From Minisyncoccota bacterium (GTDB lineage Bacteria > Patescibacteriota > Minisyncoccia > Phycocordibacterales > Phycocordibacteraceae), in assembly GCA_036405415.1 (NCBI GenBank), contig DASWXP010000002.1, positions 125,862 to 189,861 on the forward strand: a stretch of DNA of 64,000 nucleotides, given 5' to 3'. The first letter of the stretch is position 1; each line of letters opens with the position of its first letter. The position numbers and the translations under genes were made by a program. Below are positions 5,085-36,676 of the stretch, in pieces. Below the pieces are notes generated by a model. The model had not been told where the DNA came from. It worked only from the letters and a program-made list of their open reading frames with translations, and did no database searches.

Positions 5085-6437
5085 TTATGCTTCCGGCTGC
5101 GCTTCGGAGAGGAGAAGGTCGATACGATTCATGTCGCGCGGGAACGTTGAAGCCTCCTTCACGTTCTGAAGCTCGAGCATGCGGCCCGTAAGGCGCTCAA
5201 GTCCCGTCGAACATCCGCCATGTGGCGGGATGCCGTACTTGAAGGCCTGGAGGTAGAAGGAAAACTTCTCCGGGTCCATGCTCTTCGCCTTCATCTTCGC
5301 TACGAGCTCGTCGTAGCTGTGGATTCGCTGCGCGCCGCTGTTGATCTCGAGGCCGCGGAAGAGAAGGTCGAACGAGAGCGAACGCTCTGGATCCTCAGGA
5401 TCCGCCATGGTGTAAAAGGCGCGCTTTGAGGTCGGGAAATGCGTGACAAATACGAAATCTGATCCGAGTTCGCGCTTCGCGTACTCGCAGATCTGGCGCT
5501 CGTGTTCCGGCTCGAGATCCGGCTCTCCTACGCATGTGTTTCCGAACTCGCGCTCGATAATCTCCTGCACTTCGCGAAGGGTGAAGCGCGGGAATTTTCC
5601 TTCTGGAAGCGCTGCCGGCGCGACACCGAACCGACTGAGAACATCGGCATGCTCAGTAGCGACCGCGGTCGAGATATCACGGGCAACACCCTCAAGCACT
5701 TCCATCACGTCCTCGTGGCTCTTTACGAAGCCCATCTCGAACTCGAGCTGTACGAGCTCGGAGAGATGGCGCGTCGTCGCGCTCTTCTCTGCGCGGAAGG
5801 TCTTCGCGATAGTCATGACGCGCTCGAACGGACCCACCATGATCTGCTTGTAGAGCTGGCCCGAGGTAGCTAGGAACGCACGCTTGCCGTAATAGTCGGG
5901 AATCTCGAACACCGCAGCGCCGCCCTCAGCGTCTCCTCCTACGAGTACCGGCGCCTGGAACTCGGTGAAGTCACGGGAGCGCAACGAGTTGCGGAACGCG
6001 CGGAGGATCGTCGCCTGGACCTTGAAAATGTCGCGATCGCGCTGGCTGCGAAGCGTGAACGGACGGTAATCGAAGCGGGTCTCAATGGTGAGATCATCCG
6101 CATCCTTATCGAATGGAAGTTCTTCGGGCGCGGAGAGTACATCGATTCTCTTTACTTCGAGCTCGATGTCGCCGTTTAGCTTATCCGCCTGCACATTCTT
6201 CTCTGGGCGCTTGTTCACGACGCCTTCGACCGATACTACGAAGTCGTTGCGTACGTCCTTAGCGGCTGCCATGAGCGCCTCGTCTCCCGGAAGCACTACG
6301 CCTTGTACGCTTCCGGTGCGGTCCCGGAAATCGAAGAAGACGAGCTTGCCCTGGTCGCGGCGCACATCCACAAAGCCCTTGATAACGACCTGTTCTCCGG
6401 CCTTGCCGGAAAGGTCCTTGATAAGCGTTCGTTCCAT
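5085..6437 (-). CDS. aspS: Aspartate--tRNA ligase, type 2 (archaeal-like, possibly non-discriminating); AsnRS not excluded
   Basis: 450 aa class IIb synthetase with an N-terminal OB fold. Motif 2 is FRAEKSATTRHLSE, motif 3 is GGCSTGLERL, and SGQLYKQ is present. The length fits a type-2 AspRS or an AsnRS. Confidence 0.7.
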   Translation of the reverse strand: MERTLIKDLSGKAGEQVVIKGFVDVRRDQGKLVFFDFRDRTGSVQGVVLPGDEALMAAAKDVRNDFVVSVEGVVNKRPEKNVQADKLNGDIELEVKRIDVLSAPEELPFDKDADDLTIETRFDYRPFTLRSQRDRDIFKVQATILRAFRNSLRSRDFTEFQAPVLVGGDAEGGAAVFEIPDYYGKRAFLATSGQLYKQIMVGPFERVMTIAKTFRAEKSATTRHLSELVQLEFEMGFVKSHEDVMEVLEGVARDISTAVATEHADVLSRFGVAPAALPEGKFPRFTLREVQEIIEREFGNTCVGEPDLEPEHERQICEYAKRELGSDFVFVTHFPTSKRAFYTMADPEDPERSLSFDLLFRGLEINSGAQRIHSYDELVAKMKAKSMDPEKFSFYLQAFKYGIPPHGGCSTGLERLTGRMLELQNVKEASTFPRDMNRIDLLLSEAQPEA

Positions 6438-6472: not shown

Positions 6473-7429
6473 TTAGGTAACGCCAACCGCCCTTCGCACC
6501 TCCTCCATCTTCTTGTTCGCCCGCTCGCGTGCGAGCTGCCCCCCGTGCTCAAGCACGTCTGATACGGTGCGGGGATCTGACGCGAGCTCGTGGTACCGCT
6601 CGCGCATCGGCGCGATGAACGTGTCGAGGTCCTCGATGAGCGCCTCCTTGAGCGCCTTGTACTTGCCCTTATGCTCCTCGTAGAGCGCCTCGAGATCCCG
6701 TTCGTCCTTTACGAGCTTGTGGATGGCGTACACGTTCTCAGGGCGGTCTCCTGAAGAATCCGTAACGATACCCATGACAAGCTCCTCGATATCAGAACGC
6801 GAGGCGAAGAGCGGAATGGTGTTCCCGTAGCTCTTGCTCATCTTCTGGCCGTCCGTGCCCGGTACGATCGCTACCTCAGGCACGATGTACTCCTCCGGGA
6901 TCGTGAACGTCTCGCCGAAGATCCGATTGAACTTCTCCGCGGTATCGCGGGCGAACTCGATGTGCTGCTTCTGATCCTGACCAACAGGAACCTTCGCCGC
7001 GTCATACAGCAGGATGTCCGCGGCCATGAGCATCGGATAGTTGAAGGTTCCTACGGATACGTCCTTGTTCTTGGCCTCCCCGTCCTTGAACGCATGCGCG
7101 CGCATGAGGTACGGCATGGTGGTGATGGTATCGAAGATCCAAGCGAGCTCGGTGTGCGCCGGTACGTCTGACTGCTTGAACAGGACCACCTTCTCCGGGT
7201 TGATGCCTGCGGCGAGGTACGTGAGCACGAGCTCGTGGGTGAGCTCGTGCATGTCGCCTGCGTTCTGGACGAAATTGAGGCTGTGGTAGTCCGCCACCAT
7301 GAAGTAGCACTGGTGCGAGCCTACCGTCTGGAACTCCACCCACTGCTTGATGGCGCCGAAATAGTTGCCGATGTGCGCGACACCGGTCGGCTTCACGCCT
7401 GAGAGGAGGATGGGCTTGTCGTCGTTCAT
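6473..7429 (-). CDS. trpS: Tryptophan--tRNA ligase
   Basis: Class I HIGN motif (GVAHIGNYFG) and KMSKS (GQKMSKSYGN). About 318 aa. ATG at 7429; the track's upstream start is TTG. Confidence 0.85.
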   Translation of the reverse strand: MNDDKPILLSGVKPTGVAHIGNYFGAIKQWVEFQTVGSHQCYFMVADYHSLNFVQNAGDMHELTHELVLTYLAAGINPEKVVLFKQSDVPAHTELAWIFDTITTMPYLMRAHAFKDGEAKNKDVSVGTFNYPMLMAADILLYDAAKVPVGQDQKQHIEFARDTAEKFNRIFGETFTIPEEYIVPEVAIVPGTDGQKMSKSYGNTIPLFASRSDIEELVMGIVTDSSGDRPENVYAIHKLVKDERDLEALYEEHKGKYKALKEALIEDLDTFIAPMRERYHELASDPRTVSDVLEHGGQLARERANKKMEEVRRAVGVT

Positions 7430-7465
7430 GGACAAACGATACCACGCTTAGAATGGCTAATGAAC

Positions 7466-7498
7466 AAGCGCCCTTAACACGAAGTATTAAGGGCGCTT
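7466..7498. terminator. Perfect 12-bp stem hairpin (AAGCGCCCTTAA / TTAAGGGCGCTT) downstream of minus ORF 7523..7897
   Basis: Inverted repeat read directly from the sequence; loop is cacgaagta. Confidence 0.4.
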
Positions 7499-7522
7499 AG
7501 TAGTGCTGCGGGCACGGCACGG

Positions 7523-7897
7523 TCAGAAACTGTAACCCAGAAGCGTTTTCCGGATTCCTTCTGGAAGCCGCCAGCTTGATCCGGGCACCTTCCCGACAGG
7601 CCCGTCCGTCCCGATGTGGGACGTGTTCAGGGTAAGGCGCTCCAGGCTCGCAAAGCCATGACCTTCAACCAGAAGGATGGCTTGGTGGCCGGGTTGTGGT
7701 CCCTTGCACTGGGTCCTGACGGATAGTTCGTCAGCGAAGAACGCGGTCAGCGCGCTCCGCAGTCCCACGGCTTGGACGTACAGCGACGTGATGCCGGGCG
7801 ACTTCGGCAGAAGCGACAGGACCGAGGCTCCAAAAGAAGCCAGGGAATGCCTTCCTGCCATATCCTGCAGGACGCTAGAGGTAGTGATTGTGGTCAT
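7523..7897 (-). CDS. Hypothetical protein (124 aa)
   Basis: ATG at 7897 preceded by a strong SD (GGGAGGG, 4 nt spacer). Followed by the hairpin at 7466-7498. No recognisable domain. Confidence 0.45.
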   Translation of the reverse strand: MTTITTSSVLQDMAGRHSLASFGASVLSLLPKSPGITSLYVQAVGLRSALTAFFADELSVRTQCKGPQPGHQAILLVEGHGFASLERLTLNTSHIGTDGPVGKVPGSSWRLPEGIRKTLLGYSF

Positions 7898-8010
7898 TAG
7901 ACCCTCCCAAGGATCATGCCGAAATCGGCTTTGGTCTGCATGCTACAACTTCTCTTCTGGCACGCAAGTTTCCTTTATATTTTCTCGAGATTTCTCCTAT
8001 CTCTGCTTTC

Positions 8011-8016
8011 TATACT
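8011..8016 (+). promoter_or_regulatory. Putative -10 TATACT 7 nt upstream of ATG 8024 (leaderless-type)
   Basis: TATACT-tcacgcc-ATG within an AT-rich stretch. Confidence 0.35.
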
Positions 8017-8023
8017 TCACGCC

Positions 8024-8500
8024 ATGAGTACAGAGCAAGCAAACAGCCAGGATCTGGCAGTAAAGGTTACGGAAATCAAGGAAAGCGCCCGGAGAATGCC
8101 CAATCCGGACGGACCGGACCCGGTTATCGGGAAATTCTGGTTCACTCTGGACGTTACTGCTCTCACGAGAGACCTGTATGTCCCGGTCTCGATCTCCTCG
8201 GGTAAGAAGCCCACAGGATTCTCGTATCTCATCGAAGGCACCGTCCCGGGATCCATAAAGACAACGGATATATCCTGCAAAGGAGAAGGCGTGACGCAGA
8301 TCACGCATGGCACCATTATCTACGCGAAGATACCTAAGGGATTCAGGGCTACGTTCTCTATCCGCATCGAGATGCGCGGTACGCTCGGAAAATCGTACCG
8401 AACGGTCCTGTACCAGATGCAGTACAAGTTGAGTCCTACGGATACCCGCTATCAGAAACTGCCGCTCGACATAAAAGGCAAGATGGAAAAGTTCAGATAG
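8024..8500 (+). CDS. Hypothetical protein (158 aa), compositionally atypical (GC visibly lower than surroundings)
   Basis: ORF in the 7916..8500 frame. ATG 8024 is preferred (TATACT -10 7 nt upstream; the alternative at 7916 has a poor SD). No signal peptide, beta-rich, no recognised motif. Divergent from ORF 7523..7897 and ends at a terminator next to tRNA-Tyr. Confidence 0.5.
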   Translation: MSTEQANSQDLAVKVTEIKESARRMPNPDGPDPVIGKFWFTLDVTALTRDLYVPVSISSGKKPTGFSYLIEGTVPGSIKTTDISCKGEGVTQITHGTIIYAKIPKGFRATFSIRIEMRGTLGKSYRTVLYQMQYKLSPTDTRYQKLPLDIKGKMEKFR

Positions 8501-8530
8501 CAAGAAGCCGCTCGAGTGAGCGGCTTCTTG
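8501..8530. terminator. Hairpin caagaagccgctc-gagt-gagcggcttcttg between ORF 8024..8500 and tRNA-Tyr (bidirectional)
   Basis: 13-bp perfect inverted repeat immediately after the TAG stop at 8498-8500. Confidence 0.5.
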
Positions 8531-8532
8531 CT

Positions 8533-8617
8533 TGGTGCGCCGGGAGGGATTCGAACCCCCGTAGGCAGTGCCAGCACGTTTACAGCGTGCCCTCGTTGAC
8601 CACTTGAGTACCGACGC
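8533..8617 (-). tRNA. tRNA-Tyr (anticodon GTA), long variable arm, CCA encoded
   Basis: Manually folded. Acceptor GCGTCGG/CCGGCGC, anticodon stem GCACG/CGTGC, loop CTGTAAA (GTA), 12-nt variable arm, T-arm GGGGG-TTCGAAT-CCCTC. 85 nt. Confidence 0.9.
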
Positions 8618-8647
8618 GAACCTGGGGAGTATACCCCAGAAAATCCC

Positions 8648-9898
8648 CTATTTCAAAGCCAGGATAACAGCATCCCGCTTCCCTTTCTTAAGCAGGGCAA
8701 GGCCTCCTAAGAAGTCGCTCTCAGCAAGCTTCTGGTCTACCGAATCAACCGTCTGGCCGTTCAGGCTCACGCCCTTGCCTTCAAGCAGACGTCTCGCGTC
8801 TCCCTTCGAGCTTGCGAGCGAAGAGGTGGCAAGCACATCGAGCACCGAGAGTCCTCCGGCAATATCCTTGCGCAAAACCGGAAGGGACGGCGCCTCCTTG
8901 AGGAGCGTTGCCCGCGCTCCCGCAGAGAGATTTCCGAGCGGCTCCTTTCCAAAGAGGGCTTCCGAGGCCGCTTCGGCATTCTTTGCGCTGTCTGCGCCGT
9001 GCACGATGCCGGTAACCTCGCAGGCGAGCGTCTGCTGCGCCCTACGCGCACCAGGATTCTTTCCGTGCTCCTCCATGAGCGTATCGATCGCAGAGACCTC
9101 GAGGAAGGTGAACATCTTGAGGTACTTCCCGACCATCTCGTCCGGCTGGTTGAGCCAGAACTGGTAGAAGGCGAACGGCGAGGTCTTCTGAGCGTCGAGC
9201 CAAACCGCGTTTCCTTCTGACTTCCCGAACTTCTTGCCGGTTGCGTCCGTTACAAGCGGGGTCGTAAGAGCGAACGCTTCCTTCCCTTCCTTGCGACGGA
9301 TGAGCTCCACGCCGGAGAGAATGTTCGTCCACTGGTCGCTTGCGCCGATCTGAAGGTCGACGCCCTTTTCCCGGTTGAGCACGAGGAAGTCGTATCCCTG
9401 AAGTAAAGAGTATGCGAACTCGGTGTACGAGATCGACTCGTCCGGAGTCTCGAGCCTCCTCTTGATGATGTCGCGCTTCACGAGCTCGTTCACCGTAAAG
9501 TGCTTCCCGATATCCCGGAGGAAGTCCACGAGCTTCACTTTGAGGAGCCAGTCCGCGTTATCGACGACGGTTACCCTCGCCCCCACGATGCGCTGCATCT
9601 GTGCCTTGAGCGCTCTCTTGTTACGCTCTACGATCTTTGTATCTGCCAATACGCGCTCGCCGCTTTCGCGTGGGTCGCCGATCATGCCGGTACCGCCGCC
9701 GACGAGAAGCACGATCTTGTGTCCTGCATCAGCAAGGCGCTTCATGGTGAGGACTACGAGCAGGTTCCCGGCGTGCATGGAGTCTGCGGACGGATCCACG
9801 CCGAGATACACAGTGCGCTTCTTTGAGAGCACCTCATCAATAGGAGCAGATACGTGCTCCACGAGGCCGCGGGCCTTCAGTTCTTCAGCCAGATTCAT
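8648..9898 (-). CDS. tyrS: Tyrosine--tRNA ligase
   Basis: 416 aa. N-terminus has GVDPSADSMHAGNLLVVL (HIGH-type), KFGKSEGN (KMSKS-type) and a C-terminal S4-like domain. TATACT lies 6 nt upstream of the ATG. Confidence 0.9.
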   Translation of the reverse strand: MNLAEELKARGLVEHVSAPIDEVLSKKRTVYLGVDPSADSMHAGNLLVVLTMKRLADAGHKIVLLVGGGTGMIGDPRESGERVLADTKIVERNKRALKAQMQRIVGARVTVVDNADWLLKVKLVDFLRDIGKHFTVNELVKRDIIKRRLETPDESISYTEFAYSLLQGYDFLVLNREKGVDLQIGASDQWTNILSGVELIRRKEGKEAFALTTPLVTDATGKKFGKSEGNAVWLDAQKTSPFAFYQFWLNQPDEMVGKYLKMFTFLEVSAIDTLMEEHGKNPGARRAQQTLACEVTGIVHGADSAKNAEAASEALFGKEPLGNLSAGARATLLKEAPSLPVLRKDIAGGLSVLDVLATSSLASSKGDARRLLEGKGVSLNGQTVDSVDQKLAESDFLGGLALLKKGKRDAVILALK

Positions 9899-9916: not shown

Positions 9917-11560
9917 CTATGCCGGCAACTCGACCACGAACCGCGAACCCTTCCCTTCGCCCTCAGACTCTGCCCATACCTTGCCGCCGTGCGCCTCGAT
10001 TATGTTCTTCACGATATAGAGGCCGAATCCGGTCGATTCGACGTTCACCTTAGCTGAGTTCGCGCCATGACCTCCTTCAGTAAAGAGACGTGCCATGTCT
10101 TCCTTCGTGATACCTACGCCCGTGTCCTCAACCGTGAATCGGACCATCTTTCCTTCCTGTCTGAGCTTTACGCGGACTTCTCCGTTAGGCGTGTACTTGA
10201 TCGAGTTGTCAATAAGGTTCTTGAACGCGTTCACGAGCTGTGCGCGGTCGCCTGGGTACATGAGCGGCTCGGTACCCGTATCAACTGCAAGCGCAAGCTT
10301 CTTTGATTCTGCATTACCCTTCAGGTCACGTGCTATCTCGTCGATAAGTGCCTTGAGATCAAACGGCTCCTTCTTGTATTCCACCTTGCCGCTCTTGATG
10401 TTCGCCGCATTAAGGATTTCCTGAATCGTATTCACGCCCTTGGTGTCTGACCTAAAACCTTCCTCAATCATGGGTCGCATGGTGTCCGGAACGGGACCAA
10501 AGTCGCCATCAAGCACCATGGAAAAAATGTTCCTCGACTTGGTAACGAAGCCCTTGATTTGGTGGGTTATGAAATGGATAAGAGTCACCTGCTGACGATT
10601 TGACACCTGCAACTCCCTAGCAAGCTGCTCGATCTCCTTACGCTGCTGGATTTCGTGCTTAAAACTCTGAAGCAATATGTATCCGAGAATTGCGAGGAAG
10701 ACGAGGGTTGCTGCAACAATCCAGCGAACGACAGAGATGTTTTGAATGAAAAGAATGCTAAAGACTGCAAGCCACAAGCCAATAACAAGCACCTGAGCAG
10801 CCATTATTTGGCTTTTGCCAAGGAATCTGGCTTGGATAACGAAGTATGAGAGCGCGCCAATAGAAATCGGAATAACAAACAAGCCGTACTGGCCAATAGC
10901 CCAGTCCTCCGAGAAGCTACCGACAATATTGCCTGAAGCAAAGCCAAGGAGCAGCACGAGTGTAGATCCCACTACCAACAAGGACTGTGCGCGTTTTGTC
11001 GCGAGCTGTTTATTAGTCCAAGCCCTGAACCCAATCATCACGATCCAGAACACATACAGGATTTCGATGAGATAGTTGTAGTACGGAAGGGGGCCTTCGA
11101 TAACCTCGCGATCGCAGTTGGTGAGATTGAACCCAAGTATATTCCAGTGCGTGCCTGTAAGGCCAACGGTTGGCAACAGCGGGAGCACGATCAAGAGCTT
11201 CGTGCGCCAATGCACGTCCTTACCACTCACGAAAACCATCGTGAAATAGACGAAACCCGCATACACTATTGGCTCGATCATGTTCACGAGCGACCACGCG
11301 AACACAACCATTCTCCGGCTGTCAGTTGCCCAAAGAACAAGATCGAGCAATAGCCAGGTGCTCAGCACAAGCGCTATGAATAAAAGGATTCGGTTGAGGA
11401 GAGACTTTCGGTTTGAAAAGTAAATATAGAATCCGAGAATGAGCGAAACCAGCACCGGTGTCAGGTGCGAGTAGTAAATAAGAGGAGAGAAAACATTTTC
11501 TGAGAAGAACACGAGCGGGCTTGATCCCCATTCGCACGCCGCGATGAGTTCATCGATCAT
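9917..11560 (-). CDS. Sensor histidine kinase with a polytopic N-terminal membrane domain
   Basis: 547 aa. About 8 TM helices, a coiled-coil linker, an H-box region, then HATPase_c motifs (NLIDNSIKYTP... DTGVGI... GFGLYIV). The ATG overlaps the stop of the upstream 59-aa ORF (ATGA). Confidence 0.8.
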   Translation of the reverse strand: MIDELIAACEWGSSPLVFFSENVFSPLIYYSHLTPVLVSLILGFYIYFSNRKSLLNRILLFIALVLSTWLLLDLVLWATDSRRMVVFAWSLVNMIEPIVYAGFVYFTMVFVSGKDVHWRTKLLIVLPLLPTVGLTGTHWNILGFNLTNCDREVIEGPLPYYNYLIEILYVFWIVMIGFRAWTNKQLATKRAQSLLVVGSTLVLLLGFASGNIVGSFSEDWAIGQYGLFVIPISIGALSYFVIQARFLGKSQIMAAQVLVIGLWLAVFSILFIQNISVVRWIVAATLVFLAILGYILLQSFKHEIQQRKEIEQLARELQVSNRQQVTLIHFITHQIKGFVTKSRNIFSMVLDGDFGPVPDTMRPMIEEGFRSDTKGVNTIQEILNAANIKSGKVEYKKEPFDLKALIDEIARDLKGNAESKKLALAVDTGTEPLMYPGDRAQLVNAFKNLIDNSIKYTPNGEVRVKLRQEGKMVRFTVEDTGVGITKEDMARLFTEGGHGANSAKVNVESTGFGLYIVKNIIEAHGGKVWAESEGEGKGSRFVVELPA

Positions 11561-11736
11561 AGGTACTCTGAGAACATAGGAAACTCGCGTTCAATCGACT
11601 CACCAATCTCTTCCTCGGTCGTGAAGGTGGGAAAATTACGCGACAGGAAAGCATTCCAGTAAGTGTACGCCGTCACAACGAGCACAAGGAGGCACAAAAG
11701 TACGAACGGATCCAGAACTTCCTTAATTCCCTTCAT
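11557..11736 (-). CDS. Small membrane protein (59 aa), hypothetical
   Basis: ATG at 11736 gives MKGIKEVLDPFVLLCLLVLVVTAYTYW... (one TM helix plus an acidic tail). Sits between the SET gene stop (11723) and the HK start (11560) with overlaps at both ends. Confidence 0.4.
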   Translation of the reverse strand: MKGIKEVLDPFVLLCLLVLVVTAYTYWNAFLSRNFPTFTTEEEIGESIEREFPMFSEYL

Positions 11737-12229
11737 GTTTTGATAATACCTCACGCTCGTACACTTTCTGGAAGTACTTCGGGATAAAAGGGAGATACTC
11801 CCGATAGGTCTTTTCAGGAAGCGTTTGGATTGGGCCAATGAACTTGCGGAAAGCTGGCGACTCAGGCTCCTCAGTTTCGAAGCAGTAATCGACATCCTCC
11901 TCTGTGGTTGAATAGTCGATCGTAATCTCCTCCCCGGCCGCAATATCTCTCAAGGCATATAATCTCAACTTTCTCGAACCTTTCAGGCCGGCCGTCGGGG
12001 CGCAGGAGTGGTTAAGGTACTGAAACTCATCGATCGGATCGATCCAAGTATTCTTTCCGATTCCAATCCAATCTCCGTAGCGGTTGCTTTGTCCGTAGAT
12101 GGTCGGTTCGTAATATACCCGGGATCCCCGCAGCTCAGCGATAAACTGGCCACGCTTAAGCGCCTGGCGAGTGAAAACCCCGTAACCGTGTATTGGGCTT
12201 TCTAGTACTGAGAGTAAGGCCTTTTTCAT
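11723..12229 (-). CDS. SET-domain protein (putative protein-lysine methyltransferase)
   Basis: 168 aa with SET signatures GYGVF, YLNHSCAPT (NHSC) and ITIDYS (post-SET Tyr). Confidence 0.75.
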   Translation of the reverse strand: MKKALLSVLESPIHGYGVFTRQALKRGQFIAELRGSRVYYEPTIYGQSNRYGDWIGIGKNTWIDPIDEFQYLNHSCAPTAGLKGSRKLRLYALRDIAAGEEITIDYSTTEEDVDYCFETEEPESPAFRKFIGPIQTLPEKTYREYLPFIPKYFQKVYEREVLSKHEGN

Positions 12230-14557: not shown

Positions 14558-16342
14558 CTACTCCTTGATAAAGCCGCCCGCCTGGATGCTCCAGAGCTTC
14601 TGATAGAGGCCGCCTTGCTCTAGGACGAGCTCGTCATGAGTGCCGTCTGCGACCACCTTGCCCGCCTCGATAACCACGATGCGATCCATGGTCATGATCG
14701 TGGAGAGTCGGTGCGCGATCACGATAACCGTCTTCCCTTCCATGAGCACCTTGAGCGCGTCCTGGATTAGTGCTTCGCTCTCAGAATCGAGCGCAGACGT
14801 CGCCTCGTCGAGGATGAGGATCGGTGCATTCTTAAGTATGGCGCGGGCAATCGCGACGCGCTGGCGCTCGCCTCCTGAAAGCTTCACGCCGCGTTCGCCC
14901 ACATGCGTCTCGTACTTCTCCGGAAGGCTGTCGATGAACTCGTGGCAGTGCGCTTTCTTGGCAGCCTCGATAACCTCCTCGTCGGTCGCGTCCGGCTTGC
15001 CATACCTTATGTTGTCGGCGAGCGAGCGGTGGAAGAGAATCGGCTCCTGGGGAACGAACGAGATGTTATCCCTGAGCGAATCCTGCGTAACGTCACGTAC
15101 GTCCTGGCCATCGATGCGGACGCTCCCTTCCGTGACGTCGTACATCCTGAGGAGAAGTTTTGTGACGGTTGATTTGCCGGCGCCTGACGGCCCCACGAGC
15201 GCAGTCTTCTGTCCTGCGGGTATTGAAAGGTCAAAAGCCTTGAGGACCGCACGTTCACCGGTGAACGCGAAACCAACTTTCTCCATAGTGATCTCTCCGG
15301 CGGTCACGGTAAGCGCACGGGCGTTAGGCGCATCCATAACCGAGTGCGGAGTCTCGAAGATCTCGATCATCTCATGTGCATCGGCGAACGAGCTGAACAA
15401 GCGCCGCATGGAGCTTCCGATGCCCCAGATGCGGTTCACGAGGCCTATGATGTACACCTGAATGAGCACGAAGTCTCCTACGGAAATAAGGCCGCGCTGC
15501 CACAGGAACACCGCGCCAGCCAGAAGCGCCACTTCAATGACAATCGCCATGATGCCTTGCACCGCAAGGAGCCAGGTATCAGCGTTCCAGGAGCGGATCG
15601 TCGCGTCGTACCATTTCTGAAGCGCACTTCTGAGGATGCCACGCTCGTGCGTGCTCGCCGCGAACAGGCTCACGGTCGATTGGTTGCTGATCGAATCGGA
15701 AAGCACGCCGGTCACGTTGCTCTCTTCTTTCGATCGAGCGACACGCAACGGCTGACGCCATCGTGTCATTACTATCTGGATCCATATGAAGAAAAGGGTC
15801 CACGCGAGCACTCCTACACCGAGAAGGAGGTTCCGTTGGGAGAGCACGATGACGACGCCGATGCTGAAGACGGCGGTCGAGAAGAAGCCGAATGTAAAGA
15901 TGTCGATGACCGACTCGAAAGACTGGGCGTAGCGGCTTACGCGCCTCTGCAGGGAACCCGCGAAGTTCTTCGTAAAGAAGTCGTGTGAATGACGGATCAG
16001 ATGCGCGAACGCGCGGTTATAGAGATCTACCATCACCCTCGCTTCGAAATACTGGAGCGAGATCATCTGGACCCTCCTGCCTACCCAGCCCACCAATGCC
16101 ATGCCTGCATAGAGAATGAGGATCAGGAGAAGCGCTCGTACCGCTGCATCCGAAGCATCTCCCGAAGCGATACCGTCGATGAACTGCTTGATGTAAAGCG
16201 GCGAAGCGAGCGCTGCAAGCTCGATGAGAAGGCTTCCGGCAATGATCAGCACGAAAAGCCAAGGATACTTTCTCCCTGCCTTAGCGTAATCACGCACGAC
16301 CGGCCATGCACGGCCGGACTTCTTTTCATCGTCTGCCTTCAT
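14558..16342 (-). CDS. ABC transporter, fused permease/ATP-binding exporter (MsbA-like)
   Basis: 594 aa. Six-TM N-terminal domain, Walker A GPSGAGKST, signature LSGGERQRVAIARA, Walker B ILILDEATSALD. Confidence 0.85.
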   Translation of the reverse strand: MKADDEKKSGRAWPVVRDYAKAGRKYPWLFVLIIAGSLLIELAALASPLYIKQFIDGIASGDASDAAVRALLLILILYAGMALVGWVGRRVQMISLQYFEARVMVDLYNRAFAHLIRHSHDFFTKNFAGSLQRRVSRYAQSFESVIDIFTFGFFSTAVFSIGVVIVLSQRNLLLGVGVLAWTLFFIWIQIVMTRWRQPLRVARSKEESNVTGVLSDSISNQSTVSLFAASTHERGILRSALQKWYDATIRSWNADTWLLAVQGIMAIVIEVALLAGAVFLWQRGLISVGDFVLIQVYIIGLVNRIWGIGSSMRRLFSSFADAHEMIEIFETPHSVMDAPNARALTVTAGEITMEKVGFAFTGERAVLKAFDLSIPAGQKTALVGPSGAGKSTVTKLLLRMYDVTEGSVRIDGQDVRDVTQDSLRDNISFVPQEPILFHRSLADNIRYGKPDATDEEVIEAAKKAHCHEFIDSLPEKYETHVGERGVKLSGGERQRVAIARAILKNAPILILDEATSALDSESEALIQDALKVLMEGKTVIVIAHRLSTIMTMDRIVVIEAGKVVADGTHDELVLEQGGLYQKLWSIQAGGFIKE

Positions 16343-16378: not shown

Positions 16379-16885
16379 TTATCGTGCCGCCACGAACACT
16401 CCGATCAAAGGCGCCACGAACCACCAGAAGAAGAACCGGTCCGGTGCGAACAGCGCGTCCAGGGACGGCGTAAGCGGGATAACGGCCGCGATATTAAGCA
16501 CATGATACCCGAGCGCGAGCACGAACCCTCCCGTCACGAGCGCGAGCACGCCGAGCGTAAGCGGATGGATGCGCATCGAGCCTGAGGTCGAGACCCTGCG
16601 CAGAAGTACGTACGGGAAGAAGGTGAACACGCCGAACAATACGATGCCGCAGACCGCGCGCGTAAGCGCAGTATCCCCTACGAGAAACTGTTCCTTGTAC
16701 GGGAATACCGTAAAGAGCGCGAAGCCCACATAGAGCGCAAGGATGATGGAAATCAGCATCGAGCGCCCGGTGCGAAGCGCGAAGAAGAAGAGGATGCCCG
16801 CGATGATGAGGAGTACGAGGAAATTCCCGATAAAGGAAACGATATCAGCGAAGCCTCCGGTTGCGAGCGAATTGAGCGCGTCCAT
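16379..16885 (-). CDS. Small polytopic membrane protein, possibly CvpA family
   Basis: 168 aa with 4-5 TM helices. Loose resemblance to CvpA N-termini; weak call. Confidence 0.35.
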   Translation of the reverse strand: MDALNSLATGGFADIVSFIGNFLVLLIIAGILFFFALRTGRSMLISIILALYVGFALFTVFPYKEQFLVGDTALTRAVCGIVLFGVFTFFPYVLLRRVSTSGSMRIHPLTLGVLALVTGGFVLALGYHVLNIAAVIPLTPSLDALFAPDRFFFWWFVAPLIGVFVAAR

Positions 16886-35656: not shown

Positions 35657-36676
35657 TTACCCTATGATACCACCCCCGATAACGCGGTCGTTTCTGTAGA
35701 TAACGAGCGACTGCCCTGCAGCAACCGGCTCAGGAAGCGGCCCCTCGGGAACGAATGCATTTCCTGAAAGCGTACCCTTAATAACGGGTCCGTGGTACCG
35801 GAACTGAGCCTCCACGAGTCCTTCTGCCTCTCCGAACCAGTTCAGCTGCGAAAGCTTGATGCGATCTGGCGGCGACACGCGATCCTTGGATACGACCAGC
35901 TCGTTCTTCTCGATATCCTTCCGAACCACGTACCACGGACCCTGCGAAGCGCCCTCTATCGCTATACGGCTCCCAAGCGTATGGAAGAGCGCGCCATCGT
36001 GCTTTCCGAGCACGTTGCTTTCGGTATCGCGCGCGATTCCCGGTTCCTGCTCGCCGAGCTCCTGGCGCAGGAAATCCTCCACGGAAATGCTCCCGAGGAA
36101 GCAGATGCCCTGACTATCCTTCTTGCGTGCGTTCGGGAGCTTGAAACGCTTCGCAAGCGTACGGGTCCCATCCTTCTTCATGCCTCCGAGCGGCATGAGC
36201 GTCATGGCAAGCGCTTCCTCGGGCACTGCCCAGAGGAAGTAGCTCTGGTCCTTGGCCTCGTCTGTGCCTCGAAGCAGCTTTCCGTCTTCCACGCGCGCAT
36301 AGTGCCCGGTTGCGATATAGTCCGCACCCTTCTCTTTGGCGAAGCGGTAGAACGCGCCGAACTTAACCTCTCGGTTGCACATGATGTCAGGGTTTGGCGT
36401 CCTTCCCGCCTTGTATTCAGCAAGAAGATAGTCGATTACGCCCTGTTTGTACTCCTTCGATGCATCAAGCGTAATGAAGGGAATTTGCAGCCGTGCTGCA
36501 ACACGCATCGCATCCCTGCGATCTTCTGCCCAGGTGCAGAGCATGCCAGGCGGATACCAGCCCTTTATGAATACGCCGATGACGTCTGCGCCTCGTTCCT
36601 TAAGGAGCGCTGCGGTTACGGCAGAATCGACGCCACCGGAAAGTCCTACGAAGATCCTCTTTCCCTTCAGGTTCAT
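35657..36676 (-). CDS. mnmA: tRNA-specific 2-thiouridylase
   Basis: PP-loop SGGVDS at the N-terminus, catalytic Cys region (ICFLGSI), 339 aa. Confidence 0.9.
   Translation of the reverse strand: MNLKGKRIFVGLSGGVDSAVTAALLKERGADVIGVFIKGWYPPGMLCTWAEDRRDAMRVAARLQIPFITLDASKEYKQGVIDYLLAEYKAGRTPNPDIMCNREVKFGAFYRFAKEKGADYIATGHYARVEDGKLLRGTDEAKDQSYFLWAVPEEALAMTLMPLGGMKKDGTRTLAKRFKLPNARKKDSQGICFLGSISVEDFLRQELGEQEPGIARDTESNVLGKHDGALFHTLGSRIAIEGASQGPWYVVRKDIEKNELVVSKDRVSPPDRIKLSQLNWFGEAEGLVEAQFRYHGPVIKGTLSGNAFVPEGPLPEPVAAGQSLVIYRNDRVIGGGIIG

Follow-up and report, generated by a model that had tools for sequence, protein, structure and literature searches.

Between trpS and the gene for tRNA-Tyr in a Minisyncoccota bacterium lie two small open reading frames of opposite orientation, ORF124 and ORF158, which raise the question of whether they arrived together on a mobile element or belong to the native gene complement. 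The original prediction, made on the 64,000-nt stretch of DNA analysed here (the window), favoured a small horizontally acquired cassette inserted next to the tRNA gene. Our results point elsewhere: the region probably consists of two independent native genes that are transcribed back to back, and the locus is ordinary overall.

Both ORFs were found where they had been placed, as were the strong SD before ORF124, the TATACT box before ORF158 and a hairpin after each gene. The features of the region are as follows.

6473-7435, minus strand: trpS
7466-7498, minus strand: GC-rich hairpin 3′ of ORF124, with arms of 15 nt that are 93% complementary and a weak T-run
7523-7897, minus strand: ORF124 (slot gene, type A), recognised by its coding pattern and encoding an apparently fast-evolving orphan protein of 124 aa
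7898-7933, minus strand: putative 5′UTR of ORF124, with SD and stem-loop, kept in six of six occupied loci
7902-7908, minus strand: SD GGGAGGG of ORF124, 4 nt before the ATG
7918-7929, minus strand: 4-bp stem-loop GCCGATTTCGGC in the putative ORF124 5′UTR, with conserved pairing
7940-7967, minus strand: promoter-like site for the slot gene, comprising a -35, a spacer and an extended -10
7962-7967, minus strand: -35 TTGCGT of the slot-gene promoter, with a 16-nt spacer to the -10
7940-7945, minus strand: hexamer of the extended -10 TGTAGCAT of the slot-gene promoter, a promoter-like match
8011-8016, plus strand: -10 box TATACT of ORF158, 7 nt before the ATG, leaderless-type
8024-8500, plus strand: ORF158, recognised by its homologues; 158 aa, member of an unnamed Paceibacteria beta-sandwich family
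8499-8532, no strand assigned: perfect hairpin with 15-bp arms, between ORF158 and the 3′ end of tRNA-Tyr
8533-8617, minus strand: tRNA-Tyr (GTA), found by ARAGORN and by Rfam (52.3 bits)
8648-9898, minus strand: tyrS

The terminators proposed after both ORFs are present as hairpins, but the canonical T-run is absent in both and a terminator scan called neither. Region 7440-7525, which contains the hairpin 3′ of ORF124, folds at -34.6 kcal/mol (z -4.4). The 8499-8532 hairpin folds at -28.9 kcal/mol (z -6.9), is 100% identical in sequence in the related population L001, and is probably a two-way terminator common to ORF158 and the convergent tRNA-Tyr gene.

ORF158 and its neighbourhood

ORF158 is a real gene. 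It has 39 full-length homologues in Paceibacteria/Parcubacteria (E 1e-99 to 1e-37 over 92-100% of its length), and full-length similarity, 20 invariant residues and the loop SGKKPTGF...EGT place it in an unnamed 158-aa Paceibacteria family. Across this family the extended loop S-[IV]-[AS]-S-G-K-K-P-T-G-F...E-G-T is almost invariant. As had been noted, neither ORF carries a recognisable domain, as judged by Pfam; searches of NCBIfam, PHROG and PADLOC with ORF158 likewise matched no family, and none of the 39 homologues reaches Pfam thresholds. AlphaFold2 models ORF158 as a generic Ig-like beta-sandwich (pLDDT 90). This analysis thereby documents an unnamed, Patescibacteria-restricted beta-sandwich family with a confident structure model.

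An upstream start at 7916 had also been considered, which would yield a 194-aa protein whose hydrophobic N-terminus could serve as a signal peptide. However, homologues are about 158 aa long, several loci carry an in-frame stop just upstream of the shorter reading frame, and the extension is not conserved, with 25-26-nt indels in relatives. The start is thus fixed at 8024, leaving an N-terminus that is not hydrophobic and has neither signal peptide nor lipobox. The antisense-type overlap proposed for the 5′ regions of the two genes depended on the 7916 start and therefore does not exist.

The gene adjoins trpS in each of the seven other related populations (L001, L023, L036, L037, L038, L039 and L004), in a small syntenic sample of eight that includes the window. 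In L004 the trpS neighbour is kept while tRNA-Tyr and tyrS are absent beside the ORF158 homologue, so the position of ORF158 does not depend on the tRNA. Across relatives, identities are 85, 73, 72, 69, 66 and 62% for ORF158 versus 98, 97, 97, 90, 85 and 83% for TrpRS. ORF158 changes more quickly than the aaRS genes beside it (66-85% versus 83-98% identity). Also in L004, an 860-aa gene directly downstream of the homologue matches PDC-S06, a candidate defence ATPase and the sole match in our scan with PADLOC-DB 2.0; the neighbourhood is therefore able to host accessory genes.

Farther afield, no neighbour is common to 17 more distant genome loci, and hence no conserved functional partner emerged there. 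Among 47 metagenome loci of ORF158 homologues, which were scanned for the window's own neighbours and tRNAs only, trpS occurs in four, namely three of the syntenic relatives and L044. It also lies near the homologue in L024. In our judgement this proximity of trpS is left over from synteny and does not reflect a functional connection.

The lower GC content reported for ORF158 was confirmed, at 0.520 versus 0.589 ± 0.027 across a reference set of 42 ORFs (z -2.5), but the foreign origin read into it was not. First positions of codons account for the deficit (GC1 z -3.6), whereas third positions do not (GC3 z -1.1), and the codon-adaptation score has a z of -1.9. ORF158 ranks third-lowest in GC among about 60 ORFs; the neighbours at 9917-11560 and 11723-12229 are lower still. 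Moreover, its homologues show the same 5-7-point deficit relative to flanking aaRS genes in each of five loci examined, so the deficit belongs to the gene itself and does not point to a foreign source. The low GC of ORF158 comes from amino-acid composition, and the gene looks native.

Its promoter appears equally at home. Boxes of the -10 type stand 6-8 nt before the ATG of ORF158, of trpS and tyrS, and of many further genes in the window, and a TATACT-type box occurs at 6-7-nt spacing in L001, L004, L023, L036 and L038, where the spacer sequence varies. These positions suggest that ORF158 is transcribed from a leaderless-type promoter, and that such promoters dominate in this genome. For leaderless transcription in the Candidate Phyla Radiation, the paper PMC12641178 has nothing directly relevant.

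A variable slot behind a conserved promoter and 5′UTR

The sole homologue of ORF124 among 5.8 billion proteins is a 124-aa protein of L001 that is 30% identical, although TrpRS and TyrRS on the flanks are 94-97% identical between the two populations. ORF124 is not in the NCBI annotation of the MAG and its protein is known from Logan gene calls only, so we weighed the view that it is a non-coding spacer or structured RNA that is open by chance. The single homologue, an unusually high GC2 (z +3.0; overall GC is normal and codon adaptation has a z of -2.5) and an AlphaFold2 model of low confidence (pLDDT 63; a pair of long helices and then three strands) would all fit such a view. However, the L001 ORF matches ORF124 in length, start and stop, and 31% amino-acid identity persists although the DNA is near random identity. 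Identity by codon position is 0.47, 0.56 and 0.30 for positions 1, 2 and 3, that is, highest at the second and lowest at the third, and 23 of 38 identical residues are encoded by different codons. Both patterns argue for a coding sequence, as do the conserved promoter and the strong SD at the correct spacing. Rfam, run at gathering thresholds and at E <= 1, finds only tRNA-Tyr and nothing over ORF124, and no RNase P, tmRNA, 6S or T-box RNA is seen. A non-coding ORF124 is thus very improbable; by its coding pattern it is a real small gene, one that the NCBI annotation of the MAG seems to have missed.

The slot that ORF124 fills contains the 124-aa type A gene in the window and L001, an unrelated ORF of 76-137 aa (type B) in L004, L037, L039 and L023, and no gene in L036 and L038; ORF124 is therefore absent or replaced in six of the seven relatives. 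By contrast, the 5′UTR, including hairpin and SD, is kept in all six occupied loci. Pairing in the hairpin is preserved in 23 of 24 cells, with two pairs changed on both sides. The promoter-like site at 7940-7967 is the only such match in the window and is conserved in the window, L001, L004 and L023, being weaker in L037 and L039; the transcription start of ORF124 presumably lies just downstream of it. Likewise, a canonical SD is found before ORF124 alone among the 44 ORFs listed in the window.

The ORF124 side is thus a variable, lineage-specific spot on the opposite side from the tRNA. Because the coding sequence behind the conserved platform differs among close relatives, ORF124 appears to be a dispensable, very fast-evolving accessory small protein. 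Searches of Pfam, PADLOC and PHROGs matched no family to it, and a fold search with the low-confidence model returned generic helical hairpins only. Turnover of coding content in a small intergenic slot, among relatives whose TrpRS is 97-98% identical and behind a fixed promoter and 5′UTR, is of modest interest for gene birth and loss in reduced genomes.

Integration, recombination and divergence

Several observations favour acquisition as a toxin/immunity or defence cassette beside tRNA-Tyr. ORF158 has 52% GC versus a mean of 59%, codon adaptation is poor in both genes, neither has a known domain, the ORF124-ORF158 region is far more divergent from L001 than its flanks, and a candidate defence gene adjoins the L004 homologue. 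However, every syntenic relative has ORF158, even L004 with no adjacent tRNA, and variation is confined to the part that lies away from the tRNA. ORF124 and ORF158 are in divergent orientation, have separate promoters and are not conserved together, unlike a type II toxin-antitoxin pair, and no significant match to a toxin or antitoxin domain was obtained from Pfam, NCBIfam or PADLOC. The 3′ end of tRNA-Tyr is not repeated elsewhere in 7300-8750, where only two-copy chance matches of 10-11 nt occur, none of them tRNA-derived. Between trpS and tRNA-Tyr there are only ORF124 and ORF158, neither with a Pfam match, and hence no integrase; the variable spot likewise bears no sign of site-specific integration. 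A defence system was rejected, as both proteins match no PADLOC family at E <= 1, as was a phage origin, with PHROGs empty and viral contigs scanned with both families yielding no relatives. The GC deficit common to the orthologues and the native, leaderless type of the ORF158 promoter weigh against acquisition as well. Of the original proposal, the variable, lineage-specific ORF124 spot survives; a joint pair, integration at the tRNA, mobility and a toxin or defence signature do not. The cassette reading is thus largely refuted and we consider it very improbable, and a false trail towards an island or defence system is thereby closed. The tRNA-Tyr gene adjoins the pair but is not where it integrated.

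The divergence of the region could instead reflect a recombination hot spot, in which both genes of block 7465-8440 are replaced by divergent alleles of more distant relatives through homologous exchange anchored in trpS and in tRNA-Tyr/tyrS, driven by diversifying selection such as host or phage contact. DNA identity to L001 is about 88-90% in trpS and tyrS, 40-50% in ORF124 and about 70% in ORF158, with sharp breakpoints near 7465 and, inside the 3′ end of ORF158, near 8440; over the last 60 nt of ORF158, identity jumps to 93%. At third codon positions, identity drops to 0.47 in ORF158 and to 0.30 in ORF124, versus 0.65-0.74 in tyrS and trpS. The nearby aspS gene is a mosaic with a breakpoint near codon 100, so recombination between diverged relatives does occur in this lineage, and proteins related to the ORF158 domain are secreted or cell-wall associated. 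However, ORF158 identity tracks aaRS identity loosely, so that a steadily faster clock also fits, and codon-optimised aaRS genes would themselves lower synonymous divergence in the flanks. ORF158 has no signal peptide and surface exposure is not evident. The argument draws on eight sequences, with breakpoints read from DNA identity to L001. We therefore regard a hot spot as unlikely, although replacement of the ORF158 allele by homologous recombination is possible, given its third-position divergence and the jump in identity at its 3′ end. A diversity-generating retroelement was rejected: no template/variable repeat pair lies nearby, and ORF158 divergence is spread along the gene and not clustered C-terminally.

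Two independent native genes thus remain the preferred reading. ORF158 would be a vertically inherited, clade-specific gene for a single-domain Ig-like beta-sandwich protein that has no signal peptide, with a leaderless mRNA that starts from TATACT and ends at the hairpin common to the convergent tRNA-Tyr gene. ORF124 would fill a slot that is prone to turnover and lies between the promoters of trpS and ORF158, and would be expressed from the conserved promoter, the small 5′UTR stem-loop and the SD, an arrangement that is unusual in an otherwise leaderless genome.

Comparison with known systems

Slot proteins of type B resemble, by eye, the C-terminal motif ...LxGxxxGDxVxLPxGxxxxYxIxxI of GreA, and the low-confidence ORF124 model (pLDDT 63) may recall GreA/GreB and Rnk in placing a helical hairpin at the N-terminus before a small beta domain, but its hairpin tip has no acidic residues. 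We rejected assignment to GreA because the likeness is by eye and has no statistical support: PF01272 was not matched at E <= 5, hhalign against E. coli GreA gave a probability of 0.4% (E 0.14), and a profile search of the PDB returned nothing relevant. Types A and B compare with each other at E 0.4. It is quite improbable, if conceivable, that they are one very fast-evolving regulator family, possibly Gre-like, that binds the RNA-polymerase secondary channel, is expressed from the conserved, structured, SD-dependent 5′UTR, and with ORF158 marks a locus under diversifying selection linked to an episymbiotic or phage-exposed Paceibacteria lifestyle.

The nearest fold class to ORF158 is that of the YcdA-like/DUF4352-type lipoprotein beta-sandwiches (PDB 3fbq, 4r4g), with ApaG/DUF525 second. 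These proteins have the same Ig-like beta-sandwich fold, but the alignment covers only about 105-110 of the 158 residues, with 6-11% identity, and Foldseek TM-scores are only about 0.3. ORF158 does not match the DUF4352/YcdA-like sequence model and lacks the signal or lipoprotein leader, and so the likeness is one of fold class and not of family membership.

More distant relatives identified by profile search (E 1e-41 to 1e-4) carry the domain in other settings. In secreted Patescibacteria proteins it follows a signal peptide and an LxxQLxxLQAQL helix, and in others it is a module of 600-1000-aa proteins with PG_binding_1 or PKD domains. Unlike the secreted relatives, the 158-aa subfamily has neither signal peptide nor helix and several loci have in-frame stops upstream, which suggests that ORF158 is probably cytoplasmic. 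Because distant relatives carry the domain with a signal peptide or with PG_binding/PKD partners, ORF158 may descend from a cell-envelope family and act as a non-enzymatic binding module, a role suggested by its predicted fold and this domain context. The SGKKPTGF...EGT loop is a candidate for the binding surface.

Like tRNA-associated islets, ORF158 lies beside a tRNA gene, at its 3′ end, is lower in GC and encodes a hypothetical protein. Such islets are expected to carry an integrase and an att repeat, both of which are absent here. Moreover, in this locus it is the tRNA-adjacent gene that is conserved, whereas the variable part lies 600 bp away, on the trpS side.

Synteny and composition of ORF158

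The 124-aa ORF124 and the 158-aa ORF158 lie among aminoacyl-tRNA synthetase (aaRS) genes, an arrangement that the original prediction read as a toxin/immunity or defence islet acquired at tRNA-Tyr. The sequence features on which that prediction rested prove largely correct, and the gene order is as follows.

5085-6437, minus strand, aspS
6473-7435, minus strand, trpS
7523-7897, minus strand, ORF124 (124 aa)
8024-8500, plus strand, ORF158 (158 aa)
8533-8617, minus strand, tRNA-Tyr(GTA)
8648-9898, minus strand, tyrS
9917-11560, minus strand, histidine kinase

An ORF158 homologue was recovered beside trpS in seven other related populations, designated here by the loci (L numbers) that carry it.

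Protein identities at related loci with an ORF158 homologue
L023: TrpRS 98%, TyrRS 93%, ORF158 85%
L001/L002: TrpRS 97%, TyrRS 94%, ORF158 72%
L036: TrpRS 97%, TyrRS 89%, ORF158 73%
L004/L005: TrpRS 90.5%, TyrRS absent, ORF158 69%, ScpA 88%
L037: TrpRS 85%, TyrRS 83%, ORF158 66%, AspRS 87%, kinase 82%
L039: TrpRS 83%, TyrRS not available (contig ends), ORF158 62%
L038: TrpRS 83%, TyrRS not available (contig ends), ORF158 62%

The tRNA-Tyr gene comes after ORF158 in L001, L023, L036, L037 and L039. At L004, an 860-aa AAA_13 protein replaces tRNA-Tyr and tyrS downstream of the ORF158 homologue, and because trpS and ORF158 remain together there, ORF158 is tied to trpS and not to the tRNA. A search for flanking direct repeats of the tRNA-Tyr 3′ end found none, no integrase is present, and the viral contigs scanned with both ORFs contain no homologue of either. 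These observations do not support acquisition at tRNA-Tyr, and nothing ties either ORF to toxin-antitoxin or defence systems as had been proposed.

The lower GC content predicted for ORF158 does exist (52.0%, z -2.5 relative to 42 long ORFs of the window taken as reference, whose mean is 58.9 ± 2.7%), but its third codon positions are ordinary (GC3 0.66, z -1.1). The deficit is located in first positions (GC1 0.465, z -3.6), where it reflects amino-acid content, and the codon-adaptation score devised in this analysis gives z -1.9. In all five syntenic loci examined, at any local GC, ORF158 lies about 5-7 GC points under the flanking aaRS genes, so the offset is a property of the gene and no trace of recent import. 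We conclude that ORF158 is a real, native gene conserved within its clade. ORF124 has normal GC (60%), unusually high GC2 (z +3.0) and poor codon adaptation (z -2.5). Elsewhere in the window, the histidine kinase gene (GC 50.2%) and an ORF at 11723-12229 (49.3%) both fall below ORF158 and have low codon adaptation; the stretch 9917-12229 is compositionally more atypical than the ORF124/ORF158 locus.

Across 17 more distant genomes the neighbourhoods of ORF158 homologues are unrelated and share no common neighbour; among 47 metagenome loci, the search was confined to the window's own neighbours and tRNAs. Two further loci, L024 (2301-6867) and L044 (705-1486), carry more distant homologues of 62% and 50% identity about 1.5 kb or less from a trpS-like gene; at L024, genes for a PALP enzyme and a fusion protein with CM_2 (chorismate mutase) lie nearby as well. 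This proximity may be left over from ancestral synteny, or it may reflect a weak link to genes for aromatic amino acids. The AAA_13 ATPase of L004 (4630-7212, GCA_964511895.1) hits PDC-S06, a candidate defence family in PADLOC, at E 2e-124.

Divergent promoters and a variable slot beside trpS

The predicted TATACT element of ORF158 is found at 8011-8016, 7 nt ahead of the ATG. Most genes in the window have a TGnTAnnnT box 6-8 nt ahead of the ATG and lack a Shine-Dalgarno (SD) site; examples of this layout are trpS, tyrS, ORF158, 14558-16342, 16379-16885 and 35657-36676, and individual sites lie upstream of 7429, 9898, 16342, 16885, 36676 and 8024. Judged from these motifs, leaderless mRNAs seem to predominate in this genome, and ORF158 shares this native, leaderless-type layout. 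Relatives keep the 6-7-nt spacing between box and ATG, with varying spacer sequence. In-frame stops just upstream of the homologue start in L001, L003, L010, L011, L012 and L020, together with indels of 25-26 nt that separate the intergenic DNA of close relatives, establish 8024 as the correct start and expose a hydrophobic N-terminal extension from 7916 as an artefact. The two promoters are divergent, with inferred start sites at ~7933 and ~8024, about 90 nt apart; the antisense overlap of 5′ regions once suggested for a start at 7916 is consequently not expected.

ORF124 alone among the 44 ORFs listed in the window has a canonical SD, which was correctly predicted (GGGAGGG at 7902-7908, 4 nt ahead of the ATG). 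Its only homologue in the protein collection searched is a 124-aa L001 protein at the same position with 30% identity. Start, stop and length are all alike, 23 of the 38 identical residues use different codons, and identity by codon position is 0.47/0.56/0.30, which together show that ORF124 is coding. Since the protein is known solely from Logan gene calls, it is apparently absent from NCBI annotation.

Contents of the slot between trpS and ORF158
Window and L001: type A (ORF124-like), 124 aa
L004, L037 and L039: type B, homologous to one another, 76-78 aa
L023: longer type B relative, up to 137 aa
L036 and L038: empty, trpS-ORF158 gap 111 nt and 96 nt

The coding sequences of the two types have no significant similarity (hhalign E 0.4), and only the upstream region is shared. 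Because type B is found at the greatest distances from the window as well as in one of its very close relatives, it probably represents the ancestral condition; on that view type A is derived and the slot gene was lost twice. The upstream region is common to all six occupied loci and includes the following elements.

Promoter-like site: -35 TTGCGT at 7962-7967, 16-nt spacer, TGTAGCAT, -10 hexamer at 7940-7945
5′UTR stem-loop with a 4-bp GC stem: 7918-7929 (columns 135-146 of alignment A8), then SD and ATG

The stem is paired in 23 of 24 cells across the six loci, and two pairs are altered on both sides (G-C, C-G and U-G variants). Its covariation score was reached in 3 of 500 shuffles, and shifted registers pair in merely 13-52% of cells. 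These six sequences support a conserved stem, although they fall short of proof. The stem-loop is kept even ahead of unrelated coding sequences. ORF124 is best described as a real gene, small, dispensable and fast-evolving, in a slot that is prone to turnover but keeps a conserved leader with an SD.

Type B proteins recall the GreA C-terminal motif by eye, and the architecture of ORF124 would suit a small Gre-like factor. Slot proteins have no Pfam match, a PDB profile search returned nothing relevant, and hhalign against E. coli GreA gave a probability of 0.4%. We retain the Gre-like assignment as no more than a lead.

Divergence and possible recombination around the locus

DNA identity to L001
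6505-7464, trpS: ~88-90%
7465-7863, ORF124: 40-50%
7864-8440, intergenic DNA and the bulk of ORF158: ~70%
From 8441, ORF158 3′ end, hairpin and tRNA: 93-100%
tyrS: ~85%

Third-position identity to L001 is 0.74 for trpS, 0.65 for tyrS, 0.47 for ORF158 and 0.30 for ORF124. The profile may reflect faster evolution of ORF124 and ORF158 than of the codon-optimised aaRS genes. Exchange of ORF124/ORF158 alleles through recombination would fit it too, and we rate this alternative as unlikely, although the sharp identity step near 8440 and the adjoining aspS mosaic both favour some recombination. A further reading, in which the pair forms a fast-evolving regulatory or interaction locus, is improbable.

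The final 60 nt of ORF158 (8441-8500) are 93% identical to L001, compared with ~70% for the remaining gene, and the adjacent hairpin and tRNA are 100% identical; this jump may mark a recombination breakpoint or a constraint that the shared terminator places on the sequence. The AspRS encoded in the window has 76-90% identity to its L001 and L004 orthologues over residues 1-100 but only 14-40% over residues 101-450, and the switch falls near position 6135 of the window. Those two orthologues are ~90% identical to each other along their entire length, and L037 carries the window type (87% identity). The clade therefore harbours two segregating types of catalytic core, a pattern that points to domain-level replacement via recombination.

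Hairpins had been predicted to terminate both ORFs. They are indeed present, at 7466-7498 (15-nt arms, region z -4.4) for ORF124 and at 8499-8532 (a perfect 15-bp hairpin, -28.9 kcal/mol, z -6.9) for ORF158, but neither is followed by a proper T-run or called by a consensus terminator scan.

Protein family and predicted fold of ORF158

A search of 5.8 billion proteins yielded 39 ORF158 homologues with 47-100% identity, nearly all 150-165 aa long, whose named sources are Paceibacterota or Parcubacteria; the identical sequence carries the annotation hypothetical protein VGE53_00855. The expected absence of recognisable domains is borne out by Pfam, which matches neither ORF124 nor ORF158, nor any of the 39 homologues. 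Searches of ORF158 against PDB sequences, NCBIfam, PHROGs and PADLOC likewise gave no match. The family alignment has 20 invariant residues and a very strongly kept loop, S-[IV]-[AS]-SGKKPTGF-x-Y-x-I-EGT. An AlphaFold2 model built from the 39-sequence alignment (pLDDT 90.4, pTM 0.84) has ten strands, and Foldseek against the PDB gave TM-scores of merely ~0.3; the predicted fold is a generic Ig-like beta-sandwich.

A profile search reached only 76 clusters among 1.84 billion cluster representatives. In the more distant clusters the domain is preceded by a signal peptide of the Sec type and by a short helix, LxxQLxxLQAQL, and others embed it in proteins of 600-1000 aa with PG_binding_1 or PKD domains. 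Drawn solely from the modelled fold and the domain context of these distant relatives, our best inference is that ORF158 would be a non-enzymatic binding module descended from a cell-envelope domain family, and we propose the invariant SGKKPTGF/EGT loop as its candidate binding surface. In contrast to its distant relatives, the 158-aa subfamily consists of the domain without signal peptide, helix or large multidomain context.
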